A stretch of 64,000 nucleotides of DNA. Source: Psammoneis japonica. Its lineage: Eukaryota. Position numbers and translations under genes: made by a program. The stretch lies in NCBI GenBank assembly GCA_008632985.1, contig QPGO01000021.1, positions 124,001 through 188,000 on the forward strand. The letters are read 5' to 3'. The notes below the pieces were generated by a model. It was not told where the DNA came from. It did no database searches and saw nothing but the letters and a program-made list of their open reading frames with translations. This document shows positions 1 to 61,276 of the stretch, in pieces; positions within the stretch are counted from its first letter, which is position 1; each line of letters begins with the position of its first letter.

Positions 1-2329
1 AAGTGTCCATTCGAGAACACAAATGGTGAGTTCAGGCATGCAGCAAATCAGTCTTGTGATGCTCTGCACACTGGCAACAGGTGACAACGTCCAAGCTCTG
101 TTGCTCCAATGCCAACCTGTCAAACGCAGCCCAAAGATGCCAAGGATGAAGAGTCTGATGACACAAGCTGTCCTCAGGCACAGCAAAAAAGCACTGCAAT
201 TCATGTTGCCATGCCATTTTCATCACCTGTGTTTTTTGACACAAATCTGGCTCTGGTGTCTGGAAAAGGAGCCAGCCAACAGTGTTCTCTCTCCTGCATT
301 GCCAGCGACAAAAATTTGAGGTTGGGTGTTGTTGGCGACATTCAAAAGCTGCCCATTGCAACTTGCCACCTTGGAATGATGCCAAGACGAGTCGTCTGTT
401 GTCCTGCAGGACAATTGTTTGCCATCAGGTGTCTGGAGAGCAGAGTGTGGGATGGAGGGGCCATGGATGCGGGGGCAACTTTGGCAATTGCGCTCGATTC
501 CTTGACAACACTTCTTTTGAGGACATTCATTGGTGAGACTTTTTGCAATGGAATGAGGACGCATGATGACTTGACACTTCCATTGCCCTTGATCTAACTT
601 CAATCACCCTCACAGTGCAGGGTTGACTTGGGTCCTCATGAGTCAACAGTTTCCATGGCAAAGGCGAGCCTCACAGAATTGAGCACTTCCAAAATGCCAG
701 GCATGATGCGACCAGCTCCACAGGCTCCAGCCGTTTCTCTTGGTCAGCATGGCATGAAGACCAACCTGCAAACAGATGGATCCTGGTGTGCTCACATTCC
801 AATGACCAAGGCATTGTTGGCGGCACTGGGCCATGCGCCAAGGCAAACTTTTGGTGCATGGTGGTGTGCATTCTGTGTCAGCTTCACCAAGGAATGGCTC
901 TTGCATCTGTCAATTCCAAGACACAGATTTGCCAATTTGTGGATGACGGCACAGGCACTCCAAAAATGAAGATTGTGGGGATTGGTTGTCATGATGCACT
1001 TGACTGTTGAGTCACATGGTTCCTCCTTTGAAACTCCTTCCATCACAGCAACCAGATCATGCCTCAAGGACAGACTCCATCTTTGTCCAATTGTGAGGTG
1101 CTGGGCATCAATCAATGTCCTGCTGGCCCCAAGTCCTTGGTTGAGGGTGACAGAAGAAAGAACCCACTGCCTGAACATGGAGGCCAACAGTCTCAATTGG
1201 AAGTCAGACACTGTTTGGAGCCATGGATGGGAGCTTGGGTGCAATTCTTGGACCAGACAGATGGACAGCTGTCTTTTTTGCAGCTTTGGAAAGAGCCATG
1301 GAATGGATCACTCTTGCTGCTGGAGACTTTCATTGTTTTGAATTCCAAATGTTTTGAGCAGAAAAGCACATTTGTCCCAGCCATGGGTTGTTGATGGAGA
1401 TCTCATTGAATCTTTTTGGAATTTTGAAAAGGCTGCAATGGAGGCACTGGTTCAAGAAATGAATCAAAAGTGGGAAAGTGAGGAAAACTTTGCCCCTTCT
1501 GGCAATGCAAGAGGTGGCAGAGTTTTGATTGATCTGGGAAACACAATGTCTGATGGAGAGGATGAGAACACTCCAGCCAGTGGTGCCGCATGCTGACTGC
1601 AGATGACGTGTTGGTGATGGCAGACGACAAGACAATGCTCCTCTAGAGTGGGCACCGATGAGCAATGGCAGTCAAAGTCCAAGCATTTGCTGGTCAAAGC
1701 AGCAGTGATGCACCCTTCTGATTTGGCTGAGCTTTGGTGCAAAGCTTCCAATGATGTTCTTGTGCATCTCTTCCTTCTTTGCCCAGTGCTTTTGGTTTGA
1801 GTTGGCATCCAAACATTCCCTTTGTTCACACTTGGCTGCAACTGCTGGTGTGCGCCGTCACTGCATCAGAGGCATTGGCACTGCAATGACGTGTGGAATT
1901 GTGTGACAAAGTTTTTGTGACACATTTGCAATGTGTCACTGCAATGTTGGAAAGTCAGTTTGCAGCCAGAGGTCTGTCCATCAAATGTCATGTGCAATTT
2001 GTCAACAATTTAGTTGTGCCTTTTTCACTGCTTTCACTTGACTGAGATGTTCACCTGATTGCCATGTGCCAATGAAATGTTGCACTTTTATGGTGGCTTG
2101 TTCTGTTCACTGACTTTTGCAAACATCCCCTTTGCATGAGAAATGCCTTCCACCAATGTTGCAATCACATGTTACATTTGTGATGCAGCGACCCAATGAT
2201 TTGCTGTCAACTGCCATTTTGACCACATGCATTTGCTCGCTGCTGTCTTGAACAAAGCCAACGACACCTCTGCCTTCCAAGAGTCCCATGACTGTGGTCT
2301 TTTTCCGATGAGTGTTTCTCTTCTTCCTG

Positions 2330-4250
2330 CTCTTCCTCCTGCTCTTTTCCTTTGACAGCAGTCTCCTTGCATGGCCGTGGTGCTCATGAGGCAGTGGCAA
2401 ATCTCATTGCCCAATGCCAAAGCTGCTCATGGGAGGAAATTTGCAAGCACAACACAAGCTGGTTCTGTCCACGAGTTCAGTGGAAAGTTTCACAATGACA
2501 ACTGCACTTTCGGCAGGCTGTCACAATTGCATCTTTGGGATTCGCACAAGCAACCTGCCTCACTTTCTCAATGTTTCTCTTGATCCGGTTGTGTGCAGTG
2601 TCAATGTTGATCTCAACATTCAATGCAACACATGTCGCCATTGCGGCAAATTCAGGCCAATCCTCCAGCTCCTCCAGACGCAACAGGAGGGACAGCAGCC
2701 ATGGAATGCTGTGGCCTGTGTTGCTCTCTTCTCAATTGCAACCATTGCCATGGCCTTGTGTGGTGGTGACAAGTTGCAAGGAAGAGTGCCATTGGCATTT
2801 GGTCCATTCAAGGCTGAAATTTGGTGGGACATCTGTCCTTCCCCTTTCCAGCTCCAATCCATGCAAACAACACATGATGACTTGACGATGGTGGCTTCAG
2901 GACACAGAGACCCCATTTTCATCATTCTGTCAATGCAGCCATTGCATGCTTCTGTCAAGTTAATTTACATCAGTGGATTTCACTGTTGCTGCAGCAGCAT
3001 CATTGTTTTTTGGTTCAATTCAATGGTGTCATTCACTGCTGTGAAAATGACACGGCGAATCAAGGGACAATCAATAAGATCTGGTTTGCAACCCGGTGAC
3101 CCACCCATCATGTCTGCTGTGTTTCAATTGGTCCACAACATCAGCATTGCAGCAAAACATGAGTTTTTGACATCATGCACAGAAAACAGGGCTCACCTCA
3201 CATGTGATGCATGTGAAGGGAAGAAATTTTCAAGATTTTCCCTTCTCATGCAAGGCACGCGTGCTTCAAGTGCATGCCCACACATGGAGAGAACACAACA
3301 TGGTGCATGTGTTGCATTGCAACAACTCATTCATTGGCATCAGATCTTGTGGAACAATCCTGAGATTTTGCCTCAACGATTTCTGCGCAAGATCCAGAGC
3401 ATTTTGCCACCAACCAAAACCTCACCACCGTCAGCCTCGCAAAAGCAGAACAGATTGGTTCCACCCACATTGCACCCCACCAAAAAGGTGACTGTTGTCC
3501 CATGGTGGGGGCTGATGGCAGGGTGGGCAGACAATCCTTTGTCTTCTGGCAACCAAAAATGCCAAAATTCTCATGGTTTGGCCAAACTTCATTGAAAGTG
3601 TGGTGAAAATCACACCAAAGCACAATGTCAAGGTCGTTGCCTGGGCTTTCAACAAAGCAATTGGTTGGGTGGTGGTCAGCAAAAAAGATCTGGACATCTG
3701 AGATTTTCCGCTTGTGGTCCATGCCACTGTCGTGTGATGCATCCAAAGGCTTGCCATTTCATTCTTTGTGGGCATCTGACTTGGCATCACTGAAGTGACA
3801 AACAATTTGCTTTCCATCGTGAACACAAAAAACAGCCCACATGTCAAGGAACTGAGTGGCAGCTTGGTGCAATGGCTTGCAGCCAGCAAAACAATGACCA
3901 ACAGGAAACATGAGCTTGCACTTTGTCTTGAAAGAATCAAGAGACTGTTGGTTCTCATTGGCATTGGAGATGTCATCTTCTGCAGGAGCAAGTTCATCAA
4001 TCTCTTGTGCAAGATTGTCAGTTGCCCAGTTTTTCTTGAGAAGCTCTTTGCTCTGCTCCTCAAGAGGGCGTGCTTCAGAATGAGCACCATGGTTGTCCAT
4101 GAATGAAGGCATTGAGACCTTTTGAAGAGAGGGAGCAGGTGGGACAAGTTCTGGAGCTGGAGAACTTGTGCTGTTGTTGTTGTCAGCACCACTGTCATCT
4201 CCATTGTTGTCAGAAAGAATGCCGTTGCCATTGTTGCTTTCCAACAGCAG
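2330..4250 (-). mobile_element. Degenerate Mutator-like (MULE) DNA transposase relic
   Basis: Minus-strand fragments: FPVGHCFAGCKPLHQAATQFLDMWAV (N-terminal part), KRKISDVQIFFAD...VLWCDFHHTFNEVWP (IFAD and CDxxH-type MULE catalytic region) and a possible SWIM-finger remnant near 2380-2450. Many stops and frameshifts. Confidence 0.6.
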
Positions 4251-7200
4251 GTTTTCTTGGCCGCTTGTTGTGGTGTGGCCATTCTCAAGGACTTGTGTTG
4301 CTCTGCAAGGACAACAAGCAGCAAGTTGAGACCAAGTTTGAAACCATTGAGTTTTGACTGCAATCTTGGTCCTTCTGCAGTTTCGGTGTCATGTGACGGT
4401 TTGACACCATTTGTGACTTGTGCCAAGAAACCAAATTCCAATGAACAACGTGGTCTCAATTCTTTGAACAAGGTGACAAGAGTCACAAGTCCTCCAATGC
4501 AAGAGGCAAGACCACCTTCAAGAGCAAAGTTCCTTGATTGCCCAGTGCATGTGCACATCCTGAAGTGTTGACAAAAGTGATGAGCTCATGCAGCATGACT
4601 GGAGCTGCAATTTCTAAGGTGACTGGCATCACACATCATCTCAGTTGAAGCCAAATGTTTGGTGCCAAATTGAAAAGCACAAGAAATGCCGTGCAAGTGG
4701 TCACTCCACAACAAAGCTCACAGTTTCTCAAAAATCCATGGCTTTTAGAACTGCACCCTGGATCAACCTTTCCAACCTGTCTGAGAAGCTCATTGAGTGC
4801 TGCAGCTCTAAATGCCATCATGTCTGAGGTTCAAAAATTGCTCATGTCTCAGCACATGAATCATCTTTTCAGGGATTTCACTGTGTGCACAATTGCTGGA
4901 TGCCAACAGACCTCTGTGGGCAGAGTGTTGCAGCGTCAAACTCAGTTTAAATGATGAGGGAGTCCAAGTCTTGGGGTGGGAGCATCACAGTGGAGGAGAA
5001 CTTTTAATGTGACATGGGCCAACAACATTGCAGGTGGAGCAAGTGCACACAAAACTGATGCTCATGTTCAGTCAATGGCGGAAAATGAAAAAACACTGTG
5101 TCTCTCCTTGTTGCCATTGAAAAACATTCTCAACAAAATTGCTCACCTTGACATTGGTGTGTGTTGATGTCACAGCTTTGGCACAAGGTCAACTGTGCCA
5201 TCCAGCAGTTCACACATGTCGTGTGAGGAGGTCACATGCCACATTGCCCAGCAGTGCAGTGTGAATGACAGATGGAGGGCCAGGATGGAATGACACCATG
5301 TGGGCAGGGGTGGCTGGGCTGGTTGCAAAGGCACAGCAAGCATGCATGTTGCACAGTTTGGATGAATTGTGGTGAGGAAGCTGGCTGGCAAGGGATCCAG
5401 TGACCCCAAGAGGGAGAGGCTCTGAAAGCCCCATGTGTTGAGAAGGGGTGGATGCATGGTGTGCAACAATGAATCAAGGTGATGAGGTTTTGGTTTGCAC
5501 CACAATGGCTGATGGGAAGACACCACATGGTGGGGGCATTTCACACAGGAAAAGGCAGCATGTGCATGTGGGAGTGTTGAAAACAAACTTCAGAATTCCA
5601 AGGAGGTGCAAGTGGCATGAGCAATGAGCACAGGGCATTGCTGATCACCAAAAATGAGGAGACATGCAAAAGTCAACATCCAAAAGCACCAAAATGGAAA
5701 AAGGTGTGTGCCTGCATTGTTTGGAGAAGACATCATTGTGGGACTTGATTGGTCTCATGGTTGCCATGAAATTTCCTCTTGGCACTTGTGCACTGTGCCT
5801 TGGTGCATGGGTTGGCAGCAGCAGGAGCATGCAAGCCAAGAGCTGAGTCAAGAGGCATCATTGGGATGGCTGCATTGTTGCAGCCAGCCAAGTGTGAGCA
5901 GCTGGGAAGGTGGCGCAGGAATGAGGCACACATCAACATCAACAGGGCATTCAGGGAGCAAGTGAGAAAGAAGATCAGCAGGCTCATGATGGGCTGCTGA
6001 CAAATTGGAGCAAAGACCAGCAAGCAGCCAAATTGTTCCGAGAGGGCACAAAGTCCATCAAGCACAGCATTCAAGAGGGCTGTTTTGTGCCCCAGGAAAC
6101 AACAACAGAAGACATGATCTCCACAGGGGTCAGCAACTCTGTCACACACATGGGGTGTGGAGTGGGGCCCAGCTGCTCAGCAGAGATCAGGAGTTGAGCA
6201 TGCTTGCACTCAAGCATGAGGTGGAAGCAGATGAAACACATGCTGACGTGCAACAGAGTGCACCAGATTCAAATTCCAGCACTTTTGTTGTGCACCATTC
6301 TGCGTGTGACTGGCATTGAGGAGAACCCAGGAGAGTGTTGCTTGTCAACCCTTCAACCGTCACAGAGCAAATCTCTGTGGGTGAAGATTTGCTCCACTTG
6401 AAGATTTGTGATGTGTCGTGCACTTTTGGCTGCAATGACATCATGAATGCAGCACAAAAATGTTGCATCACGCACAATCTGCATGAGACACACCACATGC
6501 ACTCACTTGTGAGATTGCTCCAAGGGTGTGGTGTCATTGCTCCATTTGTGGCAGCAGCTCACAACAAAGCATGCAAAAAACCTGGTGTCAAAGAAAGTTG
6601 CTAAAAGGGCTCCCCCAGATTTTTGGTGAATGCACGTGAATGGGAGCTCTTCTTCTCTCAGAGTCATTGCACAGAAACTGTGTGCCGGCAACAGAGCACC
6701 AGAAACAGTTGTCATCAGTCTGTCTGCCCATCCATGCATGAATGTCAACTTCTTGGGAAATCAACATTGAAACATCATCTGATCAGGGGCACTGCTCTTC
6801 ACCATGTAAATCAAAATGCCCCTGATCACATGACACATTTCAATTGAGTTCCCACAAAGTTGGTGGCTCCAGTCACCCTCTCGCATGACATTGTGTGCAT
6901 TTCTGTGCGATTTGGTGTTTTTCCTTGTGCAAAATGTCAACTGTGACTCCAGCGACATTGCCAAAACAAAATTGCACAAATTGCTGTGCATGTTTGAAAG
7001 CACTCCATTTGCTGCATTTGTGATGCAAGCAAGATTGAAGGGTTGAAAAAAAGCAAAAAAAAGAGAGAAAACTTGGCAAAGACTTCATGTCATGGCTGAG
7101 GAACAATGACAAGCTCACAACCCGATCTTGTTGCTCAACTTTGTGCCAAAATAAGCAAAATGAACAGTGCAAAACTTCAAGTGCCTGTTTGACTTTAAAT

Positions 7201-7979
7201 CAACAGAATCCAAGTGAGCTGTGTGCTTCTTTGTGTGCCAGCTCCACTTCAACACAAAGACAGCCAAGTGCTTGGCAGCCAGATTTTGACAATTCCAAAA
7301 ATGGGTGCAAGCTCACCAATGCTTTTGGATTGCTTCAAATGTCATTTTCTGATGGCAGCAATGAAGCTGCAAATGACCAGCTGGCACTCAACATCCACTG
7401 TGCCTTGCTCAATGTAAAAAAAGCCAAGCACACATTGCCACAAGTCAGCCACAACAGCTGCGCCAAGCTGTTTGTCTCTCCATTGCCTTGCTTCCCATGA
7501 TGCAGTCACTGACAACTTCAGCAAAACAGGCAATGTTTTTTCTGATGCTGCTGTGTGTCTAGGTTGCAGCTGTTGCCAGGCCGTGACAACTTGCGACTGC
7601 TTTCAGCACCTTGGTGCCTTTCCGCAGGTTCCACCATGAATGCTGGTGCAGCACCTGCCTTTCATGTGAGTGTCACACCTGATGTCATTTGTCCTGACAC
7701 ACCTTCCACAAGAGGTGATGATGTTGCTCTGGCTCTTTGTGCCCCAGCCAAACACATCCAAAATGAAGTCGTGCAAAAAATGATGGCTTGTCCTCCCCTC
7801 CTTTTCCCCTTTTCCTTTTGTCCTGTCATGAGTGTGAAAAATTTGCAAAAGAACTCTCTTTCAAATTGCACCATCAACAAACATTTGTTGCTGAAGGTGT
7901 TCTTTCACATTTTTGGAATCTGAACAGAAATTTCAAGCAAATGACGACAATCATCTGTTGGTTTTTTGCTGAAATGAAA

Positions 7980-8212
7980 GCAATCAAAAATGATTGCCAA
8001 CAAAAAAAGTTTGATTGGCAATCAAATTTTTTGATGACTCATCAAAAGAAAGCACTGCAATCAAAAATGATCAGTCACAACTGAGTCACGAGTTCAAGTG
8101 TGGGTGTTCTGCAAAAAGCTCAAGATGCATTTGACGTTTTGATGCCAAACAAAATTGATTGCCAACCAGTGATTGCAGCAGCAATCAAAAAATTCTGATT
8201 GGCAATCAAAAC
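7980..8212. repeat. Cluster of short palindromic motifs (TTTGATTGGCAATCAAA, TTGATGACTCATCAA and GATTGCCAA variants)
   Basis: Repeated GATTG(G/C)CAA and CAATCAAAA units in both orientations in an A-rich tract. Confidence 0.6.
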
Positions 8213-9339
8213 TGCAACAGAAACATTGAAAACTCACGCGTGCAAAAAACAATGGTCACAATTGATTTGTCAAACAACCCAGTTTCCGTCAACTGCAACA
8301 AACAAAAACATGCGATGATTGAAATTTGTGGACAGCTCAACCTTGTGACATTTTTCAGGCAAACAACAACACGGTGCAATGGAAACAGATGGATTGACAA
8401 CCAACAACTGCAGCACATTCAGGCAAGTTGACAAGAAAAATGGTGCTCTAAAACTTCTCTGTGATTGGTTGTGTCCTGGTGGAATTTTTTGGCTTCACAC
8501 CATCAAGATGAAACAAAAGGAATTGGAAGAAAAAGGTGACATGGAGGGGTTTGCACATTTGCCAAGATTCCAAGGTGCTTTGAAAAAGCCCCAAAACTGG
8601 GAGGTGTGTGAAAACAAATCAAACCATGGCAAATCAATCACAGCCGCCATGGCAACTTGCGTCATTGTGCACAAAATGGATGCTCGTTTCTGGGTGCATG
8701 GAGGTCTGAATGGAAATTCTCCACAAGCGAGAGAGGACAAGACAAGGCAAAAATGATGAAATGACCAAAGAACCCTTCATCAACAGGTGTGAAGCCTCGT
8801 GGAGCAACACACTGGGCAAAGACTGCACCTTTGATGATCACTTTCATTTTGGTCTCCCCACCTTCATGCCACAAAGCAAGATGCCAGAGTGCATTCTTGC
8901 AGGAGTCACACAAAATGCACCCAACCTTTTGGTTCTTTTCATCTGGTGGCATGCTGGACCCACTGGCTGCCTCCTGAAGGAACAAATGTGGCTGATTGGA
9001 GGGTGTCAACATGGTGAAGCAGAAACAGAAACAGAAGAAACGCACTGTTGCACGCCACCTGCATGGGTGCAAGTTCCTGCCATGGATGAAGCAGCCCTTG
9101 TCCACTCATCATGGGCTGTGACACCATGGCAAAAGCAATTGCGGTGATGATGCAACCTGCACCTTGGCTGAAGAAGAATGGTCGATTGCACCTCATCATC
9201 ACTGCGACAAGGACGATGATGCCCAACAGCGATTTCCTCCATTTCCGGCACCACTGGCCTGACTGGAGATGACAGCTCTTCTGACCTCTCCACCATTTTG
9301 TGCATGCAATAATTTTACAATGCCCATGCCAATGCCCAC

Positions 9340-9690
9340 GAAACACAAAAGCAGGTGGAACTCATGCCAGGCGTCTTGAACCACTGCGTGCGGCCTGGGA
9401 CACATGCAAGGCCATTGAGCAGGACTTGTTTTTGCCCACAACTTGCATCACCTGTGAAGCGGCCCTCTTTTCCATTCAAGATGCCAAATGTGTGCTGTGC
9501 CCTTCTTGTCGCGTCGTCAGTCCAATAGTTATGAACGAGGACGGTGCGGTGGTGGTAGGGCCTAGTGAAGTCGAACAAAGAGGCGTTGGTTTGGGCTTAC
9601 ATTTCAACAATTATGTTCGTGGCAAGAAGACATCATGGGCAAGCGTACCCAGCAAGCCCGTCGTCGTCGTTAGTAGGCGGCGTGATACAC
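9340..9690 (+). pseudogene. Pseudogene of a small Cys-motif protein (CxxC...VLCPxCRVVSP...GVGLG), diatom-type hypothetical family
   Basis: Reads LFLPTTCITCEAALFSIQDAKCVLCPSCRVVSP...GVGLG. Frameshifts near 9375 and 9598 (an alternative frame continues TFQQLCSWQ). The 5' part lacks TA and the 3' part retains it. Confidence 0.55.
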
Positions 9691-11885: not shown

Positions 11886-11930
11886 TTTTGCGGGGGGGGG
11901 GGGGAATCACTTAAGCCCCCCCCCACGAAA
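11886..11930. repeat. G-run/C-run inverted repeat around AATCACTTAAG; candidate transposon terminus
   Basis: TTTTGC-G13-AATCACTTAAG-C9-ACGAAA. A related motif GGGGGG..ATCACTTGAG-C9 lies at about 15639-15670. Confidence 0.55.
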
Positions 11931-11969
11931 TTCAACCTCATCATTTGTTTTCACCCTTTGACACATGGC

Positions 11970-12886
11970 CACCATTTGGGGCCTGGCCCCAAACGGTGCG
12001 CCACTCTGATTGGTCTAAATAAACAGCTGTCCTTGAATAATTTTTGGCGGGAACTTAACGGCTAAATTGGTCGGGGCCTGGCCCCAAATGCTGCAAAGGT
12101 TCAAGCAACGAACGTGCTCAAGGCATTGAAAGATTTCCATGGCTGTTTACGTCGATTGTTGCACTGGTGTGTTGAGCCATCACACGCGAAAACTCAGACG
12201 AGAAAACGAGATTTTTTGCCTCCGCAACAGCGTCCAAAGATGGCAACTCGACCGCCATTTCGGCGGCCGGAGAAAATGGTGGGAAAGCTGCAACCATCAT
12301 GCAGGAATCTCAGATTTCACAATCATTTGTTGGTGGAAACAAAAAATGAAAAGGAGTGGTTGAAAGCACCGCATGGCAACAACTGTGAAACTGCCACAAG
12401 CTCGATTCTTGTTTTTGCTTGTTGACACAAAGTCAAATCTTGCGGCACCAAAATAATCAACAATCAACATGAAAGTTGCAATTTAGATTAAATTGAGCAT
12501 GGTTGTTTTGATCGTGTTGTTTTCATTCATCTCAGACAACGACAAGGTGGTCGCCGTGTCGCGAACCTGACATTGTCAATTTTCCCCGATTTGCCGTGTC
12601 ATTCACTCGTCTGTGATTGACACACCGTTGACTCGGACAGAAAACAATTGTGTGGCTAAAGTGTCAACCAAGTGGACATGCACAAATGCGTGGAGTTTAT
12701 GCTGTGAAGACCATGTCAGAACAGATGCGCAAATGGGGTCTCGCATCCTGAAACCGCCGTTGTCAATTCATCGTGGTTCCCGTTTGCAGAGCAGGCATCG
12801 TGCATGTTCAAATCATGGTCATCAAGATTCCGTCAGACAAAATGTCTGACCATTAAATTCTTGTTTGGGGGCTGGCTCCAAACAAG
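11970..12886. repeat. Three copies of the palindrome GGGGCC(T)GGCCCC bracketing about 0.9 kb; possible small non-autonomous element
   Basis: CACCATTTGGGGCC-T-GGCCCCAAACGGTG (11970-11998), GGGGCCTGGCCCC (12073-12085) and CTTGTTTGGGGGCTGGCTCCAAACAAG (12860-12886). Confidence 0.55.
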
Positions 12887-13099
12887 CAATTTCATGTGTC
12901 AAAGGGTCAAGCACCTGTGACACCCCCCCCCCCCCCCCAACAAAAAATCCGCAGAAGTGACAGTCATCGTCGCGCGCCACATTTTTGCTTTTTCTGGAAT
13001 GCTCTTCACAACAATGACCCTCGTCATTGTTGCAACTGCACAATTCATGCTTCATTGACACCTTTCCTTTTCAACAAGGGTTTGTCAAGAGCCCCTTTG

Positions 13100-14560
13100 C
13101 ACTCTCATTGCCATGCCTGCACTTGAAACAATGGGGCTGAAAAGCCAGTCAAGTCCTTCGCCACTGAAGAAGTTGAAGCAAAATGCATCAAGGCTGATGC
13201 CCCAACCCTTGAACAAGCACACAAAAGAGGGCGAAGTGGGGCAACACAGAAAGCAAAAGGAAATTGATGAAGCCAACAAATTCAAATGGAGGTGCGATCA
13301 ATGCAAGAAAAGCAGGAAGATTCATGAAAAAGTCACAACTTGGGTTGACTTCAGAATGAAAACGTGCAAACAGTTTGTCTCAAAGGGCCGGGTTGCAAGA
13401 AGGGTCATGACGACATGTGCCACAAGAGTCCAAATGCTTCAAATTACAAGCCACCAGAGAGAGTTGCCACTCAGGTTCTGAAAGATGTAGAGCCAGATTT
13501 CCTTTTGGCACTGCCACAAGATTGCAGAAACACAATCTCAAAGCAAGAAGCCTTTTGGAAAGATCTTTTTCTCTTTGCCGGAGGGAAGTGCAGAAAGTGT
13601 GCAAGAAGTGTTTTTTGATGTGTCTGAGTCCTTGGCAGATTCCAATCCACCCAGCAACAACAGCGATTCAGTTGGGGATGCTCCCAGCAGCATTGAATCC
13701 AAGGATGCATTGAAGCCATTGCTGCATGAGAAAATGACTGTGTCAAATCTAAAAAAAGCGACACCTGCCATGACGTCAATGTGGAACACAAGGAAAAAAG
13801 AGCAACTTGCTCAAGACAACATAAAAGTGCTGCTTCCAATTTTGGCATTGCTGGAATTCATTCACACGCAATGCCCAAGAGTTCACACCAACTCCAATGG
13901 CACCAAGAAGCTTGGTGGAGAGGTGAACAACACATTTCTTGGTGCCATGACCACTTTCTGCATGGAAATGTTGCATTCATGGTGCCGTTGGCAGGTGGGA
14001 AAGAAAATGAAGTTCCCAACCCAATGCATGAATCCATTCAAGGCTCAACAACACACTTGACTCAGTGGGACTGAACATGCCAGACTTGCCATTGAAGTGT
14101 TTTTCATGCAGCGACGGATTTCTGGAGCACACGAGGGCAGAGTGTGGTGGCACCAGGTTTGCAAGCAGTGCAACACCCCTTTTCAGAATGAAAGGTCACA
14201 TGGGTTGGGAGCATGGCATTGCATGCAAGAGCTCCAATTGTGGAGAGCTTGTCAAGTCATGTGATGGCAGACTGCTGCGTCATTCTCTGCAAGACTGCGC
14301 ACGTCAAAGCTTCCCAGCAGATCCCTTGCATTGCTCAAAGCCATCCTTCTTCTTGCTTCACAAAGAGGTGTCCTTTCTGCCAGAGGAGGCTGCTCTGACA
14401 GAATCAAGTGCACAGTGGGTGTCACAAACTCTCTTCCAAAGTCAAAACCATCGTCACAAAGAACTGGAGCTGTCACACCATGGCTCTGACAAGAGTTGCA
14501 AGGACAAACCTTTTCTCCAGACTTTCCATCAATTGAAGAGTGGTGAGGGCTCCTGTGCTG
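13100..14560 (+). mobile_element. Truncated Dada-like DDE transposase relic, copy 1 (N-terminal half)
   Basis: Co-linear protein similarity to copy 2: TWVDF, EKMT..LKKA.PA, LPIL.LLEFI, LP..C..CS.G.LEH.R and EEAALTESS.QW..FQSQNH...ELELS. Confidence 0.5.
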
Positions 14561-14914
14561 CCACCCACTGTTGCTCCAGCCACAAAGAGAAGAAAGGTCA
14601 AAGAAGAAGGATGCTGCTGTGATGCAAGAAAAAATCATGTCGAAAATGGTCGTCAGGGGCAGGTTGCTCATGCCTTGTGGTGCAACCAAGGAAAGCAAGG
14701 TGTTCTTGGCATCTTTTTGTGTTGGTGCACATCACATTGCCATTTCCCAGCGCAGATGCTTGAGTTCAGGATTGGGGTCCAACATGGTGGCAACAAACAG
14801 TTTGCACTTGTGTGGTTGCACCAGTCCACTGCACCAACCATGGCCGCACCAACATTGTCCCTGTTGCAGCCCTGCAGCAGAAACAAAGGGGTGGAAACAA
14901 CAGAGTTGAGAGCA

Positions 14915-15230
14915 CAACAACAAAGAAACAGACCTGTGACACTCGACACATTCCCATCACCTCATGTCAATGCTTTTGGTGTGCCCTTGTGGTGCTTGTG
15001 GTTGAGTGCATCAAGCAATGCCATCCGCCAAAAACAAAACAAAACACTGTCCAATTGAAGGAACAGAAACAACGGAAATTTAGAAGATGCCAACAAAGAA
15101 ACAACCCCGCCACACTTGGCACATTCATGTTGCCTCACGTCAATGATTTTTGTGCGTCCTCACAGTCCTTGTGGTTCATTGTCAGCAGCAATCTTGTCAG
15201 CAGCAGAAAACAAACCTCAAAACACACCCT
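14915..15230. repeat. Two diverged direct repeats of about 175 bp
   Basis: CAACAAAGAAACA...CACATTC...CCTCAYGTCAATG...CTTGTGGTT...AGCAAT at about 14918 and about 15091. Confidence 0.55.
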
Positions 15231-15709
15231 CCATTTTTAAACACAATGGAGACAAAAGAAACTTAGGAGACACAAACAAACAAATGCAGCCATCATGCTG
15301 AGCACAGTCTTTGTGCCTTGCATCAATGCTGCCAACCCTTGCATTGTCCCAATGATGGTCGATTCATGAACGGAGCCAACAGTGGCCATTGTGCTGCGAC
15401 AGTTTGAGGGTGGCAAGTGCACGTGGGGATGTTTCCCACTGCAGTGTCTTTTCCATCTGTCTGTTTGGCAAGGGGTCTTAAATGTTGCTGACTCACAAAT
15501 GGGGGCAGGAAGAAAAAAATGTTCTCAAATGTTGCACCATCACAATTGGGGATTGCTGAGTCACAACTCGCTGAAGACATGATGCAATTGGCTGAAAATG
15601 CAGTGCACAAGAATGGGACAACAAGTGACAGCATTCACGGGGGGCGCTGTCATCACTTGAGCCCCCCCCCATGCCAAACAGAGCTCATTCAGGGACCTGC
15701 GACATCCCC

Positions 15710-15740
<31 letters not shown>

Positions 15741-15949
15741 ACCACACACAGTGGGACAATTCTGCAGAAAAGACATTTGTTGGCATGCGCCATTTTCATG
15801 TTGATTTTCCGCTGCATCCACAATGAGAACGACCCTCATTGCATGTCTTGAGGTGCGCACTTCAGTTGAATGAAGCCTCTCCCTTTGTGCTGCCTTTCAA
15901 CACAGAAGCAATGCCTTTTGGTGCGCTTCTTTTCTTGTCATCATGCCCA

Positions 15950-18900
15950 CTTTCACATGTGAAAAAATGGGGCCCAAAAGCCAATCGAGGCGTTCCCGGC
16001 AGAAGAAGCTCAAGCAGCAGGACTCAGCCACAAGGAACCCATGCTAACAACAAGCAAGAGCCAAACAAAAAGCAAAAGAGGAAGCATGAAGGAAGGAGCA
16101 CAAGTTCAATCACAACTGCAATTTGTTCAGGAGCAATGGCAAGTTTCACAAAAAAATCACCAGTTGGGTGGACTTTGGCACCAAGGTTTGCAAACGATGT
16201 GTCAAAGGCAAATCACACAAGCACAGCCATGACAAGACATGTCACAAGAACCCAAATGCAGACAATTGTGTTTGTCTGGATGACATGCTGATTTCAGCAT
16301 TTAAGAAAGAAGCACCCGAGTTTGTGTTGTCGTTGCCCCATGAGTGCAAAAACAATTTGATGCAAAGAAGGATTTTGTTTCCCGACTGCCCATTCCTCCC
16401 TGAAGACAACATTGAAGAGGAGGTTGAAGAAGACTTCTGTGATGCACTCTCCAGAGAATGTCACCGTTGCACACAATGCACCAAGCAGCAAGGCACCAAA
16501 GAGTGAAGTTGAGCCATTTCTGTGCAAGAAGATGACTGCCAGCCTCCTGAAGAAGGCAATGCCAGCAGTGATGGCAACTTGGAGTTCATCTGAGAAAGCT
16601 CAATTGGCTCATGACAGTGTCAAAGTGCCTCTGCCAATTTTGGTGTTGCTTGAATTTATTGACATGCAGTGCCATTGACTTTGCAATGACTGTGATGGCA
16701 GCAAGAAGCTGGGTGGTGGCAATGAACACATCAAATTGCACCAAGACCACTTTCCACATTGCGGTGTGGCATTTGCTGTTCCATTTGCAGGAAGGCAAGC
16801 CAACAAAACACCTGATCCCATGTGTGAATCCATTTAAGGCACTGCAATGTGTCTCACATGGTGGGAGCTCAATCTCCCCAACACACCTCTGACATGCACT
16901 GCCTGCAGCTCTGGGACTCTTGAACATGAAAGGGTTGAGTGTGCTGGTGGAGAGCAAGGTTTGCAAGCAGTGCAAACCTGGCATTCAGAATGGTTGGTTG
17001 CACCAATTGGGAACACAGCACAACCTGCAAGTGCTCTTGTTGCAAGGCTCTTTTCAGGTCAAGTGGTGGGAATGTGATGAAAATGCCCTTCCAGACTGTG
17101 TTCATGCCACGTTCCCGGTGGACTCCAAGTGTTGCTCAAAATCATTGTTCTTCCTGCTCCATGACAAGGTGTCTTCTTGGTTGGAAGAGGCTGCATTGAC
17201 AGAATCAAGCATGCAATGGTTCTTTTGTTTGCTTTTCAACAGCCAAAACCACTGGCACGAAGAACTGGAGCTGTCATGCTGCAGCTCCAACAAGACCAAT
17301 GAGGATGCAGCATTTCTGGACTTGCCTTCTTTGCAAGAATGGCGTGGACAGTTTCCTCCTTCCGGAGCTCAGCTGCTTGACTTGGCTCTTGAAGCCAACC
17401 AGTCAGATCTGACAGCTTGTGGTGTGAGTGATGTGATCATCACAAATGAAAGATTCAATCATGTGGTTGTGAGACTTCAGCCACAGTTGATCACACACAC
17501 TCTGTTGTTGCAAATTGTCCATCATCTTTGGGTGCCAAAGCATGCGCAACACAGTTGACCTGCATTGGATTTACAACCTTTGCGGGTGTTGTTGATTCCA
17601 CTGCCATGACTGGTTGTTCCCATGTGATTGAGCAGATGGCTCATTGCAAGAACTTTGCACCCAAGTGCGTGCACACCAACACATGTGGCCCATGCTTGAC
17701 CCTTTCTGCCAAATTGTCTTTGGTGCCACAATTGTTGGACAACTTGGCTTGTTTCACGCAATGCAGTGTGTTACAAAATCCATGCATTGCAACCACAAGG
17801 ACTTCAGCTCAGCTCTCTCCAACAGTTCTTGAGTTGCTTGTGTGCATTCAATCAAGAGGATGAATCCGGTGTCATCATGGTGCTGTGAGATGGAACAATG
17901 AACGGAAAGATCCATGACCCAGAAGAAACATCTGATTTGAAACAAAGCAAGAGGTGGACACAGCATTGCGGATCTCTCATGCGCAAAGTTCCCATTCTGA
18001 CAGCACTGTCTCAGATTTGCCTGAGAGAATGGTGGTGCAAGTTCAAGGTTGCAAACACCAAAGGTGAGCCACCAGGACAAGGCAAGTTGGACAATGGAAA
18101 GATGCCATTCTTGGCAGGGGCAAGACAAGCATTGAATGCATTGGTTGAGAATGTCCAGTGCTCACCCGAGATTGTTGGAGACTGCCACTGAGAGATCAAG
18201 CCATCAGCAAAGTCAAAACACAAGCTTTCTTGGTGGACTGCCAAAAAAGGAGAGTCCTCACTTGAAAAGCATCACCAGCATCTCCTGGCATGCTTTGCAA
18301 ATGTGGGAATGCAGTGGGAGCTTGTAGACAGTCTCAACCTGTGAGGGACTGCATGGTGCAATTTGAAGCTGCAGCACAAACTCTTTGGAGCGGAGACAGC
18401 CGAGGAAATGCCAAGCCATTTTCAAAACAAGCCAATGTTCCTGCCCCATCTCAAGCTCCATGAAATCAACCACAGGGCATCAAAGCATGGCTCAAAATTC
18501 CCATGGCACCAAAATCTTTGAGAGTGCCCTGAGGATGACAGGGGAAGAATTTTTTTCTGAGCACTTGCTGTCTCAGTGACAGTGGCACTCTCAGTGTCCC
18601 AAGCACCCAACCAACAGTTGGCGTCAGTGCTCCAAATGCACCCCAAGCCGCTGCCACATGTCCAAAGGCAGCAACACTCCAGTGCTGTTGGTGATGAAGG
18701 CAGCAATGGTGAAGAGCATGAGTCATCATTCTGCGATTTTGATGAGTCGCTTTTGTTTGGAATTGACACCAAAAACTTGCTGCAGCACAGTGCCAATCAA
18801 GAACAGCCACAACACGGCAGTGTCTGTCACTTCCAATGGCATCAACAGCCAAATGCAATTGCACCTCCACCACCTCCTCCTGTCCTTCTGGTTCTGATGT

Positions 18901-19560
18901 GACCATCACCATGGACACAACCAAGTGTTGGTTCATTTGTCAGCCCGCCACCCTTTTGCTTCCCCACTAACCTCCAAGCAGCATGTCCGGCATCAGCAAT
19001 TCCCACTCCAGAGCCAGCTGCACCTGTGTCAAAGAAGAGAAGAAGAGCTGAAGAACAATTTTGCTGTGAGAGCCGGAAGAGTTGTGTGCAAAACGGTCTC
19101 TGTGGCCACGTCGTGCATGCGTTTCCATGCACAAAAACCACCACGGGATTCTTTCAGAGAGAACACATGTGTTGCAGTCAATGTTTGTCAGCAATCCTGC
19201 GGCAGCAATCCCCACTCCACAGCCAGCAGCATCTGCATCAAAGAAAAGAACAATTTTAGTGTGAGGGCCAGAAGCATCATGTGAAAAACAGCTCACATGG
19301 TCACATCATGCGTGCTCATGCCTGCGGGTTCCTTCTAAAGAGAAGTTCCTTCCAGAGCTGACAAATTGCAGTCAACCAAAATTCAATGTGTCCACAGCCA
19401 GCATCATCTGCCAGAAGCATCTGCATCAAAGAAGAGAACAACTTTGGTGCAAGGGATGGAAGCATCATGTGCACAATGGCGCACATGGTTGTGTCATGCA
19501 TGCTTGCACCTTCAGGTTCTTTGAGAGCCAATGTGTTGCAGTCAACCAACATTCAATTCA
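15950..19560 (+). mobile_element. Near full-length degenerate Dada-like (DUF6729-type) DDE transposase relic, copy 2
   Basis: Fragments in order: EWRGQFPPSG, VDHT (first D), GAKACAT, CVHTNTC (YTD-like second D region), LGLFHAMQ (DxxH-equivalent) and KGES..LEKHH...FANVGM..LVDSLNL*GTAWCNLK (catalytic E region), then C-terminal repeats. Superfamily assignment is from remembered motifs only. Confidence 0.55.
19020..19545 (+). repeat. Three diverged repeats of about 190-210 bp at the transposase 3' end (possible Cys/His finger units)
   Basis: GCATCTGCATCAAAGAARAGAACAA(T/C)TTT at about 19228 and 19416, with a related unit at about 19020. Confidence 0.6.
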
Positions 19561-21199
19561 TTGAAAGAGGAGCAAAGTCCTGCTGGTGCCAACTGGCCAC
19601 TGATCTGTGTCTTTTCATGGCTTGTTGTTTGCCATGATCTTGTTGTCAGCAGAAAAAACAAAACAAAGAACACAAACCTTCTGCACTGGCAGAAAACAGA
19701 AAAGAACACAATGAATTTTGGCAGTTGTCAAATGACAAATGCCACCATCAAACTTGAGACATTTGCATCACCTTTGTGAATTCTCTTGCCCATTGCATCA
19801 CGCCAGCACCAGTCGACCAACAAATGATCTTGTCGGTGGCAGAGAAAAAACAGCAACCATCAGCACTGGTGGAAAATGGAAAAGAACGCAACAACTGTGA
19901 GGAGTCATCAAACAAAAATGCTGCCACAAAACTCAAGGAATTTGTCTCACCTTGCACAAATGCTCTCACCCATCTTGTCATCCCAGCGTGATGGCATGAA
20001 TGAAACCAAGTGGCGCCATGGTGTGTGACACCATGGTGACTTGTGGTGTGTGTGTGTGTGTGTTGATGCAGGTTTCCCGCCACTTCAAATTTCTGTTTTG
20101 TCAGTCTGCCAAGTGACAATGAGTCACAAATGCCAAACCAGGCCTGTGGGAAGCATTGGCCACTTGTCTTTCTTTGTGGGTGTGGGTGTGTGCCGTTGCA
20201 CACAGCATTGCCTGCAGAGTGTGCACGCAACGCAGGGCCCCACCGCCGGGGCTGGCATTGTGGCCACAGGGTGGCATGGCCACCACACCGGTGACACGGA
20301 TGACCACGATGTTTTGTGGTTCGTGCCTTTTTGGGGCTGCAGCGAGGTGCACGGACACTCTTTTTTGTCCAATTTGCCGCTGAAACAGTGCATTGCACAA
20401 ACTTTCTTGTTGTTTGACATGTTTTTTCCAACACAACCATTTTGTGCGCAACTTGCAACAAATTGTGTCTGCCAAGAGCTGGATGCATTTTTTAACATGC
20501 TGCACCGGCAATGCCAATTTTACCGCAGTTTTGAGCTCTTCCGAAAAACCACACCATGCACTCGTCGCAGGGAATTTGTCGATTGTTTAGGAAGTCCCCA
20601 CAAACCCCAATGTCCTCAATGATCATTCTCAGAATGCAAATGATTTGTGTGTGCCAAACAAACCACGCTCTTCCGAATTCTGAGGGACACACTTTCAATT
20701 GCCGACATCCCGACTGACCCACGACCAACCCACTGACACACTGACTGACTGACTGACTGACACAAAAAAGTCTGCAATCACCAACCACCAAGTGGTCAAT
20801 GAAAGGATGTTGATGTTGTCAAGTGACACTGCATCACAGTTGGCTTTCGCTGACTCATGATGCAGTCAAAAAACAATTTGATTGGCTAAAAATGCATTGC
20901 ATGGGAGCTGAAGAACGACTCACTTCCCTCATCTCACCAGGTGGTTCACAAGACCTTTAGAGTCCATTCAAGCAGAAAGTGCAGACTGCAAGAAACAATG
21001 GCCAAAAGCTGTTGCTGTGGCAAAAACCGCGCTGGACCAAGCGGGTTGACCAGATCAACTGCAGCTGCACCCAACTGCCCCACAACTTGCTCCCTGCGGG
21101 TTTGTGAACGTGCACTTGTCTTGACGCTCTGTGCCCATCCATGGTTGTTGATTGCTGGGACAAGCAGGCGTGACCAAGCTCTTTGCAGGTGGCAACAAA

Positions 21200-22575
21200 A
21201 GTCGTGTGATTTTTAGGATTGAATGATTCAATGACAAGTGCGTTTGGGCAGCGGGTGAGAATGGCACACCCAACATGCCCGAGTTGCTGATCAAGGTGTT
21301 TGAATCCTTTTCTGGAACCGTGATTCATTCATTGGATGCCAGTGATCTAAAAAAGCACGTGCAGGGAAAACACATTTTGGCCATTGGTGGTTCCTGCTCT
21401 GCGGAAGATTTGGCGCCAATGGCGCCAACCAAGCTCGGCGTCAAGAGGGTTTCTGTGAGCTTCCGGGATTTCACCGAATGGGATGAAACCCTCATTTGGC
21501 CTGTGGACAAGGTGCAGTTGCACCCTGAAACCATTGCTGCTCACTCTACATGCGATGGAAGTGTGCATCTTTTCCCAGAAGTGTGCATCTTTTCCCATCA
21601 AATCTTGACTTTTTTTGCACCGGATACAAGGGGAACTACCACGCTGATGGCCCGCGCCCCCCCGCCCCCGGATCGATCGCGAACTACTCCATGTTGGATG
21701 AATCATCACTTCAACCACCATCCAAGACATCCAAGGAGGAGATGGATCAAGTGTACTTTTGTCCCTCTGACTGGAAAATGAAACACAATGTTCTGTCTGA
21801 CGATTTTGGAGATGCAGTGCCTTCAAATGAAATTTGGACTGAATGCCGGCACATGACACAGCATTTCAAACCCGGAATTTATAATGTCGGGCTCATGACA
21901 AATCCGTCCATGTTGTTTCTTTTCAATCAAGGCGCTGAGGCACCGTTGTTTGGTGTTGATGCATCCGTGTGTCAAGCTGTAGGGCACATTGTCGGGACCA
22001 AAGAAGTGCCGTCGATGAATGAAATGCCAGCATTTCTTGCGAATAATGGACGTTCCATTTTTCCGACGCTACTTGGATAAGAACTACGCAAGAGCTTATT
22101 TCAGATTGGGAGACGACCACTGGGTGAATCGGGACGAAGAGGACGACGTAGAGGCCGATCGCAACTGGGACCTTTTTGTGCATGGGATGTATCGATTTCA
22201 TTGACGATGTTGATTTGTTCACTCAACGGGGGAAACTACCCTCTTGACTTGGGATCATACGACAAAGACTTCCTGTCGGAGCGTGGAGAAAAATATTACG
22301 GTGAGTTTAACCATCGTTTTCGCCTGACAGTGAAAACAACATTAGGGCCCAAACGCTTTCTGCATTGCATATTAGCAATGATCATGGCTGACTTTGAAAA
22401 CGAGAACGAAGAGGAAGCCGAGTTGCGAACCTTTCGTAAGTTGCTCGCGTCGCAAGACGATGCGTCGCTTTTGTCATGTGTGACTCATCAAGCTTCTTTT
22501 TTTCAGGCGACCTCAAGGCTCACCAAGCAGAGCAATTTGCGTCTCTATTCACTGGTACGAAAGCAGTTCCTCTAA
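21200..22575 (+). pseudogene. Flavin-containing monooxygenase (FMO) pseudogene, partly hypermutated
   Basis: DKCVWAAGENG.PNMP, FSGTVIHS, GKHILAIGGSCSAEDLA (GGSYSAED NADPH-binding motif with Y->C), FCTGY and NPSMLF...PLFGVD. Split over several frames. Confidence 0.75.

Positions 22576-61238: not shown

Positions 61239-61276
<38 letters not shown>

Follow-up and report, generated by a model that had tools for sequence, protein, structure and literature searches.

Context-dependent loss of TpA steps in gene-poor blocks of a Psammoneis japonica contig

Which TA steps survive in DNA that has lost nearly all of them, and what do their neighbours say about the cause of the loss? The question arises in a 64,000-nt window, the whole stretch of DNA analysed here, from Psammoneis japonica (NCBI GenBank assembly GCA_008632985.1, contig QPGO01000021.1, 124,001-188,000, forward strand; positions below follow the numbering of the window). 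A scan of the window marks five gene-poor blocks, 34 kb together, that are almost stripped of TA (Table 1). The initial annotation had drawn the depleted range as 1-21600; blocks A and B within it are depleted, but they do not form one domain, as a genic island interrupts them. The borders are sharper than 250-800 bases, and the intervening genic DNA has a TA observed/expected ratio (o/e) of 0.57. Block A has its final TA at 9316, and genic TAs begin at 9526; 41501-42000 holds 34 TAs, ending at 41895, and none follows until 42669 in block D, whose left border is thus very sharp; block E begins between the TAs at 53439 and 53606.

Table 1. Features of the window, with their TA content
Feature	Position	Strand	TA content and remarks
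Block A	1-9500		TA- and CG-depleted; 22 TAs: 13 YTAR, 4 YTAY, 5 RTAR, 0 RTAY
Genic island flanked by blocks A and B	9501-12500		TA-normal; 101 TAs, 21 of them RTAY; internal control
ORF in genic island	10092-11723	-	543 aa
Block B	12501-21500		TA-depleted; 28 TAs: 19 YTAR, 6 YTAY, 3 RTAR, 0 RTAY
Block C	34001-36000		11 TAs, 0 RTAY
Block D	42001-45000		11 TAs, 0 RTAY
Block E	53501-64000		34 TAs, including the sole RTAY of all five blocks
Border windows, intermediate TA density	12001-12500, 21501-22000, 33501-34000, 35501-36000, 45001-45500		5-9 TAs per 500 bases

What kind of DNA has been affected? A Pfam scan of 161 block ORFs, with three border ORFs alongside, turned up no viral or transposon family in any block, so that direction of the process to repeats is only a possibility here. 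The stop-to-stop ORFs of block A reached the cut-off of no Pfam family, and the surviving TAs are dispersed through DNA without recognisable genes. Block A looks mostly single-copy, with a word depth of about 60 in the public run X1. Across most of 12007-20000, largely block B, the summed word depth in the same run is raised to 97-1299, which suggests multi-copy DNA. The search for usable internal duplicates in the window, and for paralogues of intact genes inside the blocks, gave none. The ORF of the genic island has no Pfam match; its look-alikes according to a language model are named Crinkler/RHS-like.

The composition of the blocks points to two losses. In their 34,000 bases TA occurs 106 times (o/e 0.05) and CG 428 times (o/e 0.22), with CA at 3926 (o/e 1.80) and TG at 3770 (o/e 1.83), compared with 0.57 for TA, 0.98 for CG and about 1.2 for CA/TG in the 30,000 bases of genic DNA. 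Trinucleotides containing TA or CG are down to 0.28 or less of their genic frequency, and every other trinucleotide stands at 0.78-1.78. The two losses coincide in the block cores, and TA loss extends 0.5-1.5 kb past CG loss at four edges. In block B, for example, CG loss is limited to 13001-20000, and the edges 12501-13000 and 20001-21500 keep 13-25 CGs per 500 bases, where most genic windows have about 21-37. At the edge of block E (62501-64000) CG climbs from 12 to 25 per 500 bases.

Is the loss of TA blind to its neighbours? The 106 block TAs comprise 58 YTAR, 25 YTAY, 22 RTAR and a single RTAY, a GTAC with its T at 63296 in the edge of block E just described. Blocks A and B alone, with 50 TAs, give 32, 10, 8 and 0. 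The expected number of RTAY in all blocks is 20.7 from flank frequencies, 25.4 from the flanks of CA/TG steps and 29.5 from genic NTAN shares, so that the probability of one or none is 2.7e-9 to 4e-14; for 0 of 50 in blocks A and B it is 1.3e-5 to 8e-8. The initial annotation, which reported RTAY gone and YTAR persisting, with no ATAT, GTAC, ATAC or GTAT, thus read blocks A and B correctly: all four words are at zero there. Its examples CTAA at 594, CTAG at 1643, TTAG at 4745, CTAA at 4808, CTAG at 7559 and TTAA at 15237 are as described, and only the CTAA given at 4613 is really at 4614. It had also named a count of the 16 NTAN tetramers as the check, with uniform depletion as the outcome that would refute it, and predicted the depletion rank RTAY > RTAR = YTAY > YTAR. 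The o/e ratios from base composition follow that rank (0.002, 0.036, 0.046 and 0.100), and uniform depletion is rejected on four baselines (p 1.6e-10 to 7e-25). Genic TAs are biased the opposite way (332 RTAY and 198 YTAR among 1193), so the flank pattern of the blocks is not a genome-wide habit. The estimated survival is 0.003 for RTAY, a value from a small sample of 106 TAs that hangs on one site, 0.06-0.07 for the mixed classes RTAR and YTAY, and 0.19-0.27 for YTAR. The ancestral NTAN shares behind these estimates are proxies, because the window comes without ancestral sequence, and mutation polarity is likewise not directly observed.

The flank rule goes beyond purine and pyrimidine. Survival by the base 5' of the T falls in the order T > C > G > A, and loss by the base 3' of the A in the order T > C > G > A; the ratios of block to genic frequency are 0.02 for TAT/ATA, 0.04 for TAC/GTA, 0.08 for TAG/CTA and 0.19 for TAA/TTA. 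A half-site model with four letters (survival weights T 2.1-3.3, C 1.2-1.4, G 0.63-0.83, A 0.33-0.48) beats a model with R and Y only (p 4e-4 to 8e-7), the chief contrast being T versus A; C at -1 is near background (0.23 of survivors versus 0.22). T stands at -1 in 54% of survivors against a background of 27%, and at -2 in 56% against 26%. Both excesses recur in the two halves of the window, with 0.56 in A+B and 0.53 in C+D+E at -1, and 0.62 and 0.50 at -2. The likelihood gain is 91.9 at -1, 80.5 at -2, 31.8 at -3 and 16.3 at -4. Among half-sites TT is seen 64 times where 16.4 are expected, GG once for 13.3 and AG twice for 13.9, and T before and/or A after the TA is found in 89 of the 106 survivors against 47% expected. 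At the extremes, RR-TA-YY is lost fastest and TT-TA-AA slowest.

Could the pattern belong to the DNA or to its assembly rather than to the loss of TA? The 427 surviving block CGs serve as a control in the same DNA, and they show no flank bias (chi2 15.9, df 15, p 0.39), while on the same baseline TA gives chi2 105.5 (p 1e-15). A context-dependent loss of TA beside unbiased CGs points to a sequence-reading agent, not to drift. To that extent the annotation's case against drift is borne out; that one sequence-reading enzyme is the cause is something we infer. Contigs built independently from run X1, at a word depth of about 60 and with another assembler, carry the same TA-free DNA, the run being probably from the same sample as the assembly. 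Four letters differ between X1 and 1-1926 of the window. Over 1-9400 the listed single-copy differences number 17, with CG<->TG/CA accounting for 11, TA<->CA for 2 and a double change CA<->TG for 1.

The reading that we consider the probable one is that the blocks owe their composition to CpG decay together with a TpA-specific A:T->G:C hypermutation whose rate is set by the flanks. The blocks would be old gene-poor DNA struck by two transition processes, each ending in TG/CA. One would be ordinary CpG decay, here blind to context. The other would be hypermutation such as has been directly measured in Bigelowiella natans, attacking all NTAN at a rate governed by at least three bases on either side of the TA. 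It would act fastest with purines before and pyrimidines after (RR-TA-YY), so as to wipe out ATAT, ATAC, GTAT and GTAC, and slowest with T (or TT, TC) before and/or A (or AA, GA) after, as in TTTAAA-like sites. The present TAs would mainly be the slow tail of this decay, and therefore YTAR, above all TTAA, would predominate. A single sequence-reading enzyme may be the cause, and the blocks may have been marked for it as repeat or heterochromatin. A DNA adenine deaminase would be the simplest chemistry, and a modification of thymine on the other strand may be the alternative; A->G and T->C on the opposite strand are indistinguishable in these data. We put forward more tentatively, as a possibility rather less likely than not, that this natural mutator is directed to domains and reads about 8 bp (roughly RR-TA-YY fastest, TY-TA-RA slowest), with both flanks bearing on the same event. 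If both flanks do so, one would expect a reader of double-stranded DNA, be it an enzyme or a dimer, and not a single-strand deaminase.

Are the residual TAs slow-to-vanish survivors, or were they newly made? They might have arisen by C->T at CpA in T-rich context (TCA->TTA, with an APOBEC-like TC preference) after an erasure blind to context, in which case the flank rule would be that of a cytosine mutator. We regard this as unlikely, although it is the most probable of the alternatives. A one-sided model, in which each residual TA has its context from a single flank, as is to be expected of new TAs, predicts about 0% RTAY, 50% mixed and 50% YTAR, near the observed 1/47/58, and with one flank position it fits slightly better than the two-sided model (+2.7 log-likelihood, favoured in 68% of bootstraps). 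Two flank positions put the two-sided model ahead by 5.0, and 93% of bootstraps then favour it. TC/GA is about 12% lower and TT/AA higher in the blocks than in genic DNA, and the lowest trinucleotides without TA or CG contain TC (ATC 0.78, GAA/TTC 0.86 of genic); this deficit may just mirror the coding composition of the genic baseline. The polymorphic site 2173, TTA in the window and TCA in X1, is compatible with either direction. The border windows retain about a third of their TAs and 14-29 CGs each, and only 2 of their 36 TAs in 2.5 kb are RTAY (P 0.0009 if the genic share of 27.8% is expected, 0.004 if 24% is). By our estimate, these TAs could have been made anew only if about 6% of CA/TG steps had mutated where CG is little decayed. 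Half-erased windows that are already short of RTAY favour context-dependent destruction over newly made TAs.

Another source of the flank rule, which we hold to be improbable, is the error context of a repair polymerase. T:G mismatches, arising often in methylated DNA by deamination of 5-methylcytosine, would recruit a polymerase-eta-like enzyme for error-prone patch repair, with A->G at WA. The coincidence of TA and CG loss in block cores agrees with this, and the reach of TA loss beyond CG loss at four edges is patch-like. The typical error of polymerase eta, known from antibody somatic hypermutation, is A->G at WA motifs; TA and AA are both hit, and transversions occur too. In the blocks AA, the other half of WA, is undepleted (o/e 1.23, with AAA at 1.22 of genic), which is not the record of WA mutagenesis, and no trinucleotide without TA or CG is under 0.78 of genic. 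The 230 changes reported from B. natans, all at TpA, are far purer than such an error spectrum.

The initial annotation had proposed a stricter rule, A->G restricted to 5'-TAY-3' and acting on the two strands independently, by which RTAY is hit twice, the mixed tetramers once and YTAR never. We think it very improbable in this form. It does predict the rank order, and its product is in excess in block cores, where R-CA-R:R-TG-R reaches 1.40, compared with 1.23 in genic DNA (p 0.016; about 509:133 if lost CGs split evenly). At block edges, where CG decay is no confounder, the products are symmetric at 34:40. YTAR, supposed to be a target on neither strand, has itself been erased, with o/e 0.10 and a loss of about 73-90%, only about 3.5-4.5x slower than RTAY in -ln(survival). 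Strictly independent strands, by the multiplicative half-site fit, predict 4-6 RTAY, 38-41 mixed and 61-63 YTAR against the observed 1/47/58, a slightly bad fit (p 0.004-0.036), and the two flanks of the survivors are negatively associated (Fisher p 0.012). The context dependence behind the TAY preference stands; the R/Y classes are too coarse for it, and -2 and -3 also matter and are as informative as the tetramer. That no specific process acted is scarcely credible, whether the pattern is then put down to drift in composition, to selection acting on the TAs that remain, or to an artefact of assembly or base calling on modified DNA. Nothing positive speaks in its favour, and the sharp borders, the context-neutral CGs, the TA-free X1 contigs and the scatter of survivors over DNA without recognisable genes all speak against it.

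What would follow from flank-dependent TpA hypermutation? The flank fingerprint would be the first biochemical clue to the enzyme, and the rank TAT > TAC > TAG > TAA gives a basis for comparing lineages, for example with B. natans. It may recur in distant algae; if so, it would be a handle for finding the enzyme and would help to recognise, across eukaryotes, a genome defence that resembles RIP but has the opposite chemistry. As the process is not all-or-none in any context, the composition of residual TAs is usable as a clock of block processing. Divergence-based ages of transposons and duplicates in such genomes would be badly inflated at TA sites, and base-editing research would have an interest in a TA-specific A:T->G:C activity that acts naturally on chromosomal DNA.

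How does the locus compare with known systems? RIP in Neurospora and other fungi is also a dinucleotide-specific transition hypermutation of defined domains with a neighbour-base preference, and it too spares adjoining genes. RIP turns CpA into TpA and enriches TpA. The direction and chemistry here are opposite, with TpA at 0.05 and CpA/TpG at 1.8 instead of TpA gain and CpA/TpG loss. In ADAR-edited copies of retroelements, A->G is limited to the transcribed strand and comes in strand-coherent clusters, and the preference for the 5' neighbour is loose. In the blocks CA and TG are balanced (3926 versus 3770), neighbouring CA/TG steps are of the same type in 50.1%, the CA share of 300-base segments shows no overdispersion (p 0.11), and the confinement to TA is almost absolute. 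The CG loss, together with some of the TG/CA gain, is explained by CpG decay of methylated repeats, in line with the 11 of 17 listed differences to X1 in block A, but such decay is unable to remove TA, and the TAs left have a flank bias that the surviving CGs lack. Deamination of adenine by ADAT2/3 and TadA-type enzymes likewise yields A->G, and their natural tRNA target, A34, follows a conserved U33, a U-A step. Amphioxus ADAT2/3 is the sole natural DNA adenine deaminase found in our literature search; BjADAT2/3 edits DNA, and its BjADAT2 is described as preferring GAA and hairpin loops, unlike the TA target here (PMC10354150).

The closest system is that of B. natans, where integrated DNA of giant viruses and virophages undergoes TpA hypermutation (Mettrop et al., 2026 preprint, bioRxiv 10.64898/2026.01.13.699255). 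Mutation-accumulation lines gave 231 mutations in two viral insertions, with all 230 A->G/T->C changes at TpA, and an ADAT2 homologue is put forward as candidate. TpA->TpG/CpA hypermutation is thus already known; the words 'context' and 'flanking' are absent from the main text of that preprint (10.64898/2026.01.13.699255), so no flank rule is stated there. The organism is another one, and erasure at our locus is close to saturation (TA o/e 0.05, where the B. natans NCLDV region has Rho 0.45) and coupled to CpG decay. Foreign origin, evident there, has no counterpart in a viral or transposon domain detectable in our blocks; the depth across 12007-20000 hints at repeats, and block A looks single-copy. 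In both organisms only TpA is affected, with TpG and CpA as products on either strand, which in our case is seen at the level of the footprint (TA 0.05, CA/TG 1.8). Both also show local domains beside normal genes, here five blocks with sharp borders, and the same long-term outcome of scarce TpA and abundant CpA+TpG.

The window is eukaryotic DNA, and its genic part encodes an ABCA-type transporter, TPR_12/TPR_10 proteins, a subtilase and a thioredoxin-domain protein. Across the five gene-poor blocks A to E, 34,000 bases in total, TA occurs 106 times (observed/expected, o/e, 0.05) and CG 428 times (o/e 0.22), while CA and TG stand at 1.80 and 1.83. The corresponding values in 30,000 bases of genic DNA are 0.57 for TA, 0.98 for CG and about 1.2 for CA/TG, and G+C is equal in both, about 0.47-0.48. 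Only trinucleotides with TA or CG are depleted in the blocks, and the block/genic ratios of the others all lie within 0.78-1.78. This indicates that both self-complementary YR steps were turned into TG/CA by transitions.

Blocks, the TA-normal island and other features of the window
Feature	Positions	Strand	Remarks
Block A	1-9500
TA-normal island between blocks A and B	9501-12500		101 TAs, RTAY = 21
Block B	12501-21500
Block C	34001-36000
Block D	42001-45000
Block E	53501-64000
ORF, 543 aa	10092-11723	-	in the island between two erased blocks; no Pfam family; hypothetical proteins of eukaryotes and Crinkler/RHS-like clusters resemble it by language model (0.98-0.99)
ORF, 543 aa	28767-30398		considered as a paralogue of the ORF at 10092-11723; unrelated on comparison
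Subtilase (Peptidase_S8)	36156-38959	+	domain split between overlapping ORFs 36156-37310 and 37283-38959, which points to an intron or frameshift
Tandem direct repeat	46504-47139		copies offset by 165 bases and 90% identical over 471 bases; lies within ORF 46084-47244 (-), itself lacking any Pfam family
Divergent gene pair	48227-50437; 51252-53384	-; +	many TPR_12/TPR_10 repeats

The borders of the blocks are abrupt, as seen from the TA pairs that flank them (9316 and 9526, 41895 and 42669, 53439 and 53606). The step from 41895 to the next TA, in block D, is the sharpest in the window; in the region 41300-42700 a TA-dense stretch (34 TAs in 41501-42000) adjoins the block. The plus-strand gene of the divergent pair stops about 50 bases short of 53439, the final TA before block E. 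Four edges (12501-13000, 20001-21500, 33501-34000 and 62501-64000) retain CG, with 1-6 TAs and 12-29 CGs per 500 bases, and there TA erasure extends 0.5-1.5 kb past CG depletion. Either the TA process is quicker than CpG decay, or it spread outside the methylated core.

Which TAs persist in the blocks? When TAs are classed by their flanking purine (R) or pyrimidine (Y), the 50 of blocks A and B comprise 32 YTAR, 10 YTAY, 8 RTAR and no RTAY. The initial annotation had claimed such a loss of RTAY and persistence of YTAR for 1-21600, a range made of block A, the island and block B, and six of the seven tetramers it cited are placed exactly, the seventh being off by one. Over all blocks the counts are 58 YTAR, 25 YTAY, 22 RTAR and a single RTAY, a GTAC with its T at 63296, within an edge zone. 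Expected contexts were taken from four baselines: block flank frequencies, the neighbours of CA/TG steps, those of YR steps as a whole, and the NTAN shares of genic DNA. Over these baselines 20.7-29.5 RTAY and 17.6-33.0 YTAR are expected in the blocks. The probability of at most one RTAY among 106 is 2.7e-9 to 4e-14, that of none among the 50 of A and B is 1.3e-5 to 8e-8, and the YTAR surplus has P 4e-7 to 5e-19. The bias in genic DNA is opposite to that in the blocks (RTAY 332 and YTAR 198 of 1193). The flank bias of the surviving TAs is thus genuine and far outside chance. Relative to base composition, o/e is 0.002 for RTAY, 0.036 for RTAR, 0.046 for YTAY and 0.100 for YTAR, the order of depletion that had been predicted.

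The bias is specific to TA and is found in both halves of the window. On one shared baseline, 427 surviving block CGs are context-neutral (chi2 15.9, df 15, p 0.39), and chi2 for the 106 TAs is 105.5 (p 1e-15). In half-sites, i.e. the bases 5' of T on either strand, survivors carry T at -1 with frequencies of 0.56 (A+B) and 0.53 (C+D+E), and T at -2 with frequencies of 0.62 and 0.50.

Is YTAR then a non-target, as the initial annotation proposed? Taking the YR steps within each flank class as the pool, and an ancestral TA share similar to that of genic DNA, we estimate survival at 0.003 for RTAY (95% 0.0001-0.017), 0.06-0.07 for the mixed classes (RTAR and YTAY) and 0.19-0.27 for YTAR; -ln(survival) is about 5.8, about 2.7 and about 1.3-1.65, respectively. 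Therefore YTAR is also a target, lost about 3.5-4.5 times more slowly than RTAY, and every context is eroded. The division into R and Y is itself a coarse description, as a four-letter half-site model fits better (p 4e-4 to 8e-7). The survival weights of the base 5' of T are 2.1-3.3 for T, 1.2-1.4 for C, 0.63-0.83 for G and 0.33-0.48 for A, and block/genic trinucleotide ratios are 0.02 for TAT/ATA, 0.04 for TAC/GTA, 0.08 for TAG/CTA and 0.19 for TAA/TTA. A T preceding or an A following TA is found in 89 of 106 survivors vs 47% expected. The signal extends past the tetramer, the fit gain (LR) being 91.9 at -1, 80.5 at -2, 31.8 at -3 and 16.3 at -4. Of the survivor half-sites, 56% have T at -2 (background 26%) and 72% have A or T at -3. 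The dinucleotides TT (64 observed vs 16.4 expected) and TC (33 vs 12.0) are over-represented, and GG (1 vs 13.3), AG (2 vs 13.9) and GA (3 vs 13.5) under-represented. Roughly, the fastest-lost target is RR-TA-YY and the slowest TY-TA-RA.

The proposed process, A->G at 5'-TAY-3' acting independently on each strand, does not describe these counts well: its multiplicative R/Y maximum-likelihood fit is off (p 0.004-0.036), with 4.1-5.6 RTAY, 38-41 mixed and 61-63 YTAR predicted and 1, 47 and 58 observed. The two flanks of the survivors are negatively associated (Fisher p 0.012). Heterogeneity in block age was considered as the cause of the misfit and is ruled out because, by the Cauchy-Schwarz inequality, it would lower the mixed class beneath the geometric mean, not raise it. 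Rates may instead multiply across both flanks, i.e. a single recognition event may read both sides. By our arithmetic multiplied rates give sqrt(5.8 x 1.65) = 3.1 for the mixed class, and the observed value is 2.7, with an interval of 2.4-3.0. Another possible explanation, which likewise fits the class counts, is that residual TAs are of one-sided origin. Neither model leads throughout: the one-sided one is ahead by 2.7 log-likelihood when a single flank position is used (68% of bootstraps agree), and the two-sided one by 5.0 when two are used (93%). The products were also compared, since the independent-strand TAY model expects R-TA-R to become R-CA-R. The R-CA-R:R-TG-R ratio of the block cores is 1.40 vs 1.23 in genic DNA (p 0.016), a weak excess confounded by CG decay, and the product ratio is about 509:133 if lost CGs are assumed to split evenly. 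At the edges, which have undergone little CG decay, the product estimate of 34:40 lacks the predicted excess.

What could leave a domain-restricted, TpA-specific transition footprint with a flank-dependent rate, as observed here? At saturation there is no strand bias (CA 3926 vs TG 3770); strand-coherent runs of CA or TG in the blocks were not found, neighbouring CA/TG steps being of the same type in 50.1%. We infer a sequence-reading enzyme working on marked chromatin. The context-dependent depletion and its predicted order speak for the enzyme reading of the initial annotation, while its spared YTAR and independent strands did not stand; its observation is confirmed and its interpretation supported in part. 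As to the chemistry, adenine deamination, with A->I read as G, would be the simplest option, and T->C via a modified thymine on the opposite strand fits the data equally well. As far as is known, the tRNA target A34 of ADAT/TadA is invariably preceded by U33, and this order would rationalise the need for T-A. The authors of a preprint on Bigelowiella natans proposed adenine deamination, with an ADAT2 homologue as candidate enzyme (10.64898/2026.01.13.699255). BjADAT2/3, the one characterised natural enzyme met in the literature, favours GAA and hairpin loops on DNA (PMC10354150).

Are the TAs of today really survivors? A serious alternative is that erasure was context-blind, with present TAs newly made by C->T at CpA in a T-rich context (TCA->TTA). 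We consider this improbable in view of five 500-base border windows of intermediate TA density (starting at 12001, 21501, 33501, 35501 and 45001). Each has 5-9 TAs and 14-29 CGs, too many TAs for a new origin without visible CpG decay, and RTAY is only 2 of their 36 TAs (P is 0.0009 relative to the genic share and 0.004 relative to 24%); YTAR is 13 of 36. The RTAY share climbs stepwise with TA density (1%, 6%, 24%, 28%, 29%), which indicates that RTAY was lost selectively at an early stage, when most TAs present must still have been ancestral, the polarity of mutation being read indirectly. Self-blastn of the window gave 14 pairs; the six involving block DNA are short (84-692 bases) with both members mutated, and a tblastn search of the blocks for copies of intact genes, with 59 genic ORFs as queries, had no hits.

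Two further processes are unlikely: WA errors of a polymerase-eta-like kind, as AA is undepleted in the blocks, and an RNA-level ADAR route, in view of the equal hits on both strands and the near-absolute restriction to TA. A Pfam scan of 164 stop-to-stop ORFs (161 block, 3 border) detected no transposon or viral domains, which leaves repeat-directed targeting a hypothesis for the window. The five weak hits listed, including MIF4G, JAMP, Nbas_N and LRR_1, are held to be chance; for LRR_1 no single stretch passed by itself.

An assembly or base-calling artefact is unlikely because contigs from a public sequencing run (X1; different assembler, word depth about 60) show the TA-free sequence as well, and because of the nature of the differences. 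X1 is probably from the same sample as the window assembly, so the check is independent of the assembly, not of the DNA. Three public runs, from one sample, were found; contigs of a second (X2) span only about 9.9-11.8 kb, and the third (X3) contributed no coverage. Only 4 letters differ from X1 over 1-1926, and by our own sum transitions account for 135 of 170 places of difference between window and run contigs. Among the 17 differences listed for the single-copy block A, 11 are CG<->TG/CA, two are TA<->CA (2173 in TTAC, 3440 in GTAA), two are other T/C changes, and one, at 5046/5047, is a double change between CA and TG. Double differences, CA in the window and TG in X1 contigs, occur at 5046-5047, 12669-12670 and 14054-14055; such a pattern would result if one ancestral TA or CG were converted independently in each of two alleles or copies. 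Summed X1 word depth is 97-1299 at 12007-15341 and 16009-20000, compared with about 60 in other parts. Block B may therefore have several genomic copies and block A appears single-copy, summed contig depth not being equal to copy number.

How does this process compare with known systems? A full-text literature search gave no account of TpA erasure in diatoms, nor of a flank rule; passages of PMC4504042 and PMC9258296 proved to have no bearing on it. Fungal RIP has the opposite direction. In mutation-accumulation lines of B. natans, according to the main text of the preprint, TpA hypermutation was measured in two viral insertions. Of the 231 mutations there, 230 were A->G/T->C, every one of them at TpA, and genome-wide there are clusters poor in TpA and rich in CpA+TpG (10.64898/2026.01.13.699255). 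The words 'context' and 'flanking' are absent from that main text, and its supplements might hold a flank analysis. The novelty here is the flank fingerprint, absent from the main text of the one paper describing this recently reported hypermutation, and the process seen in the window otherwise agrees with the TpA hypermutation of B. natans.
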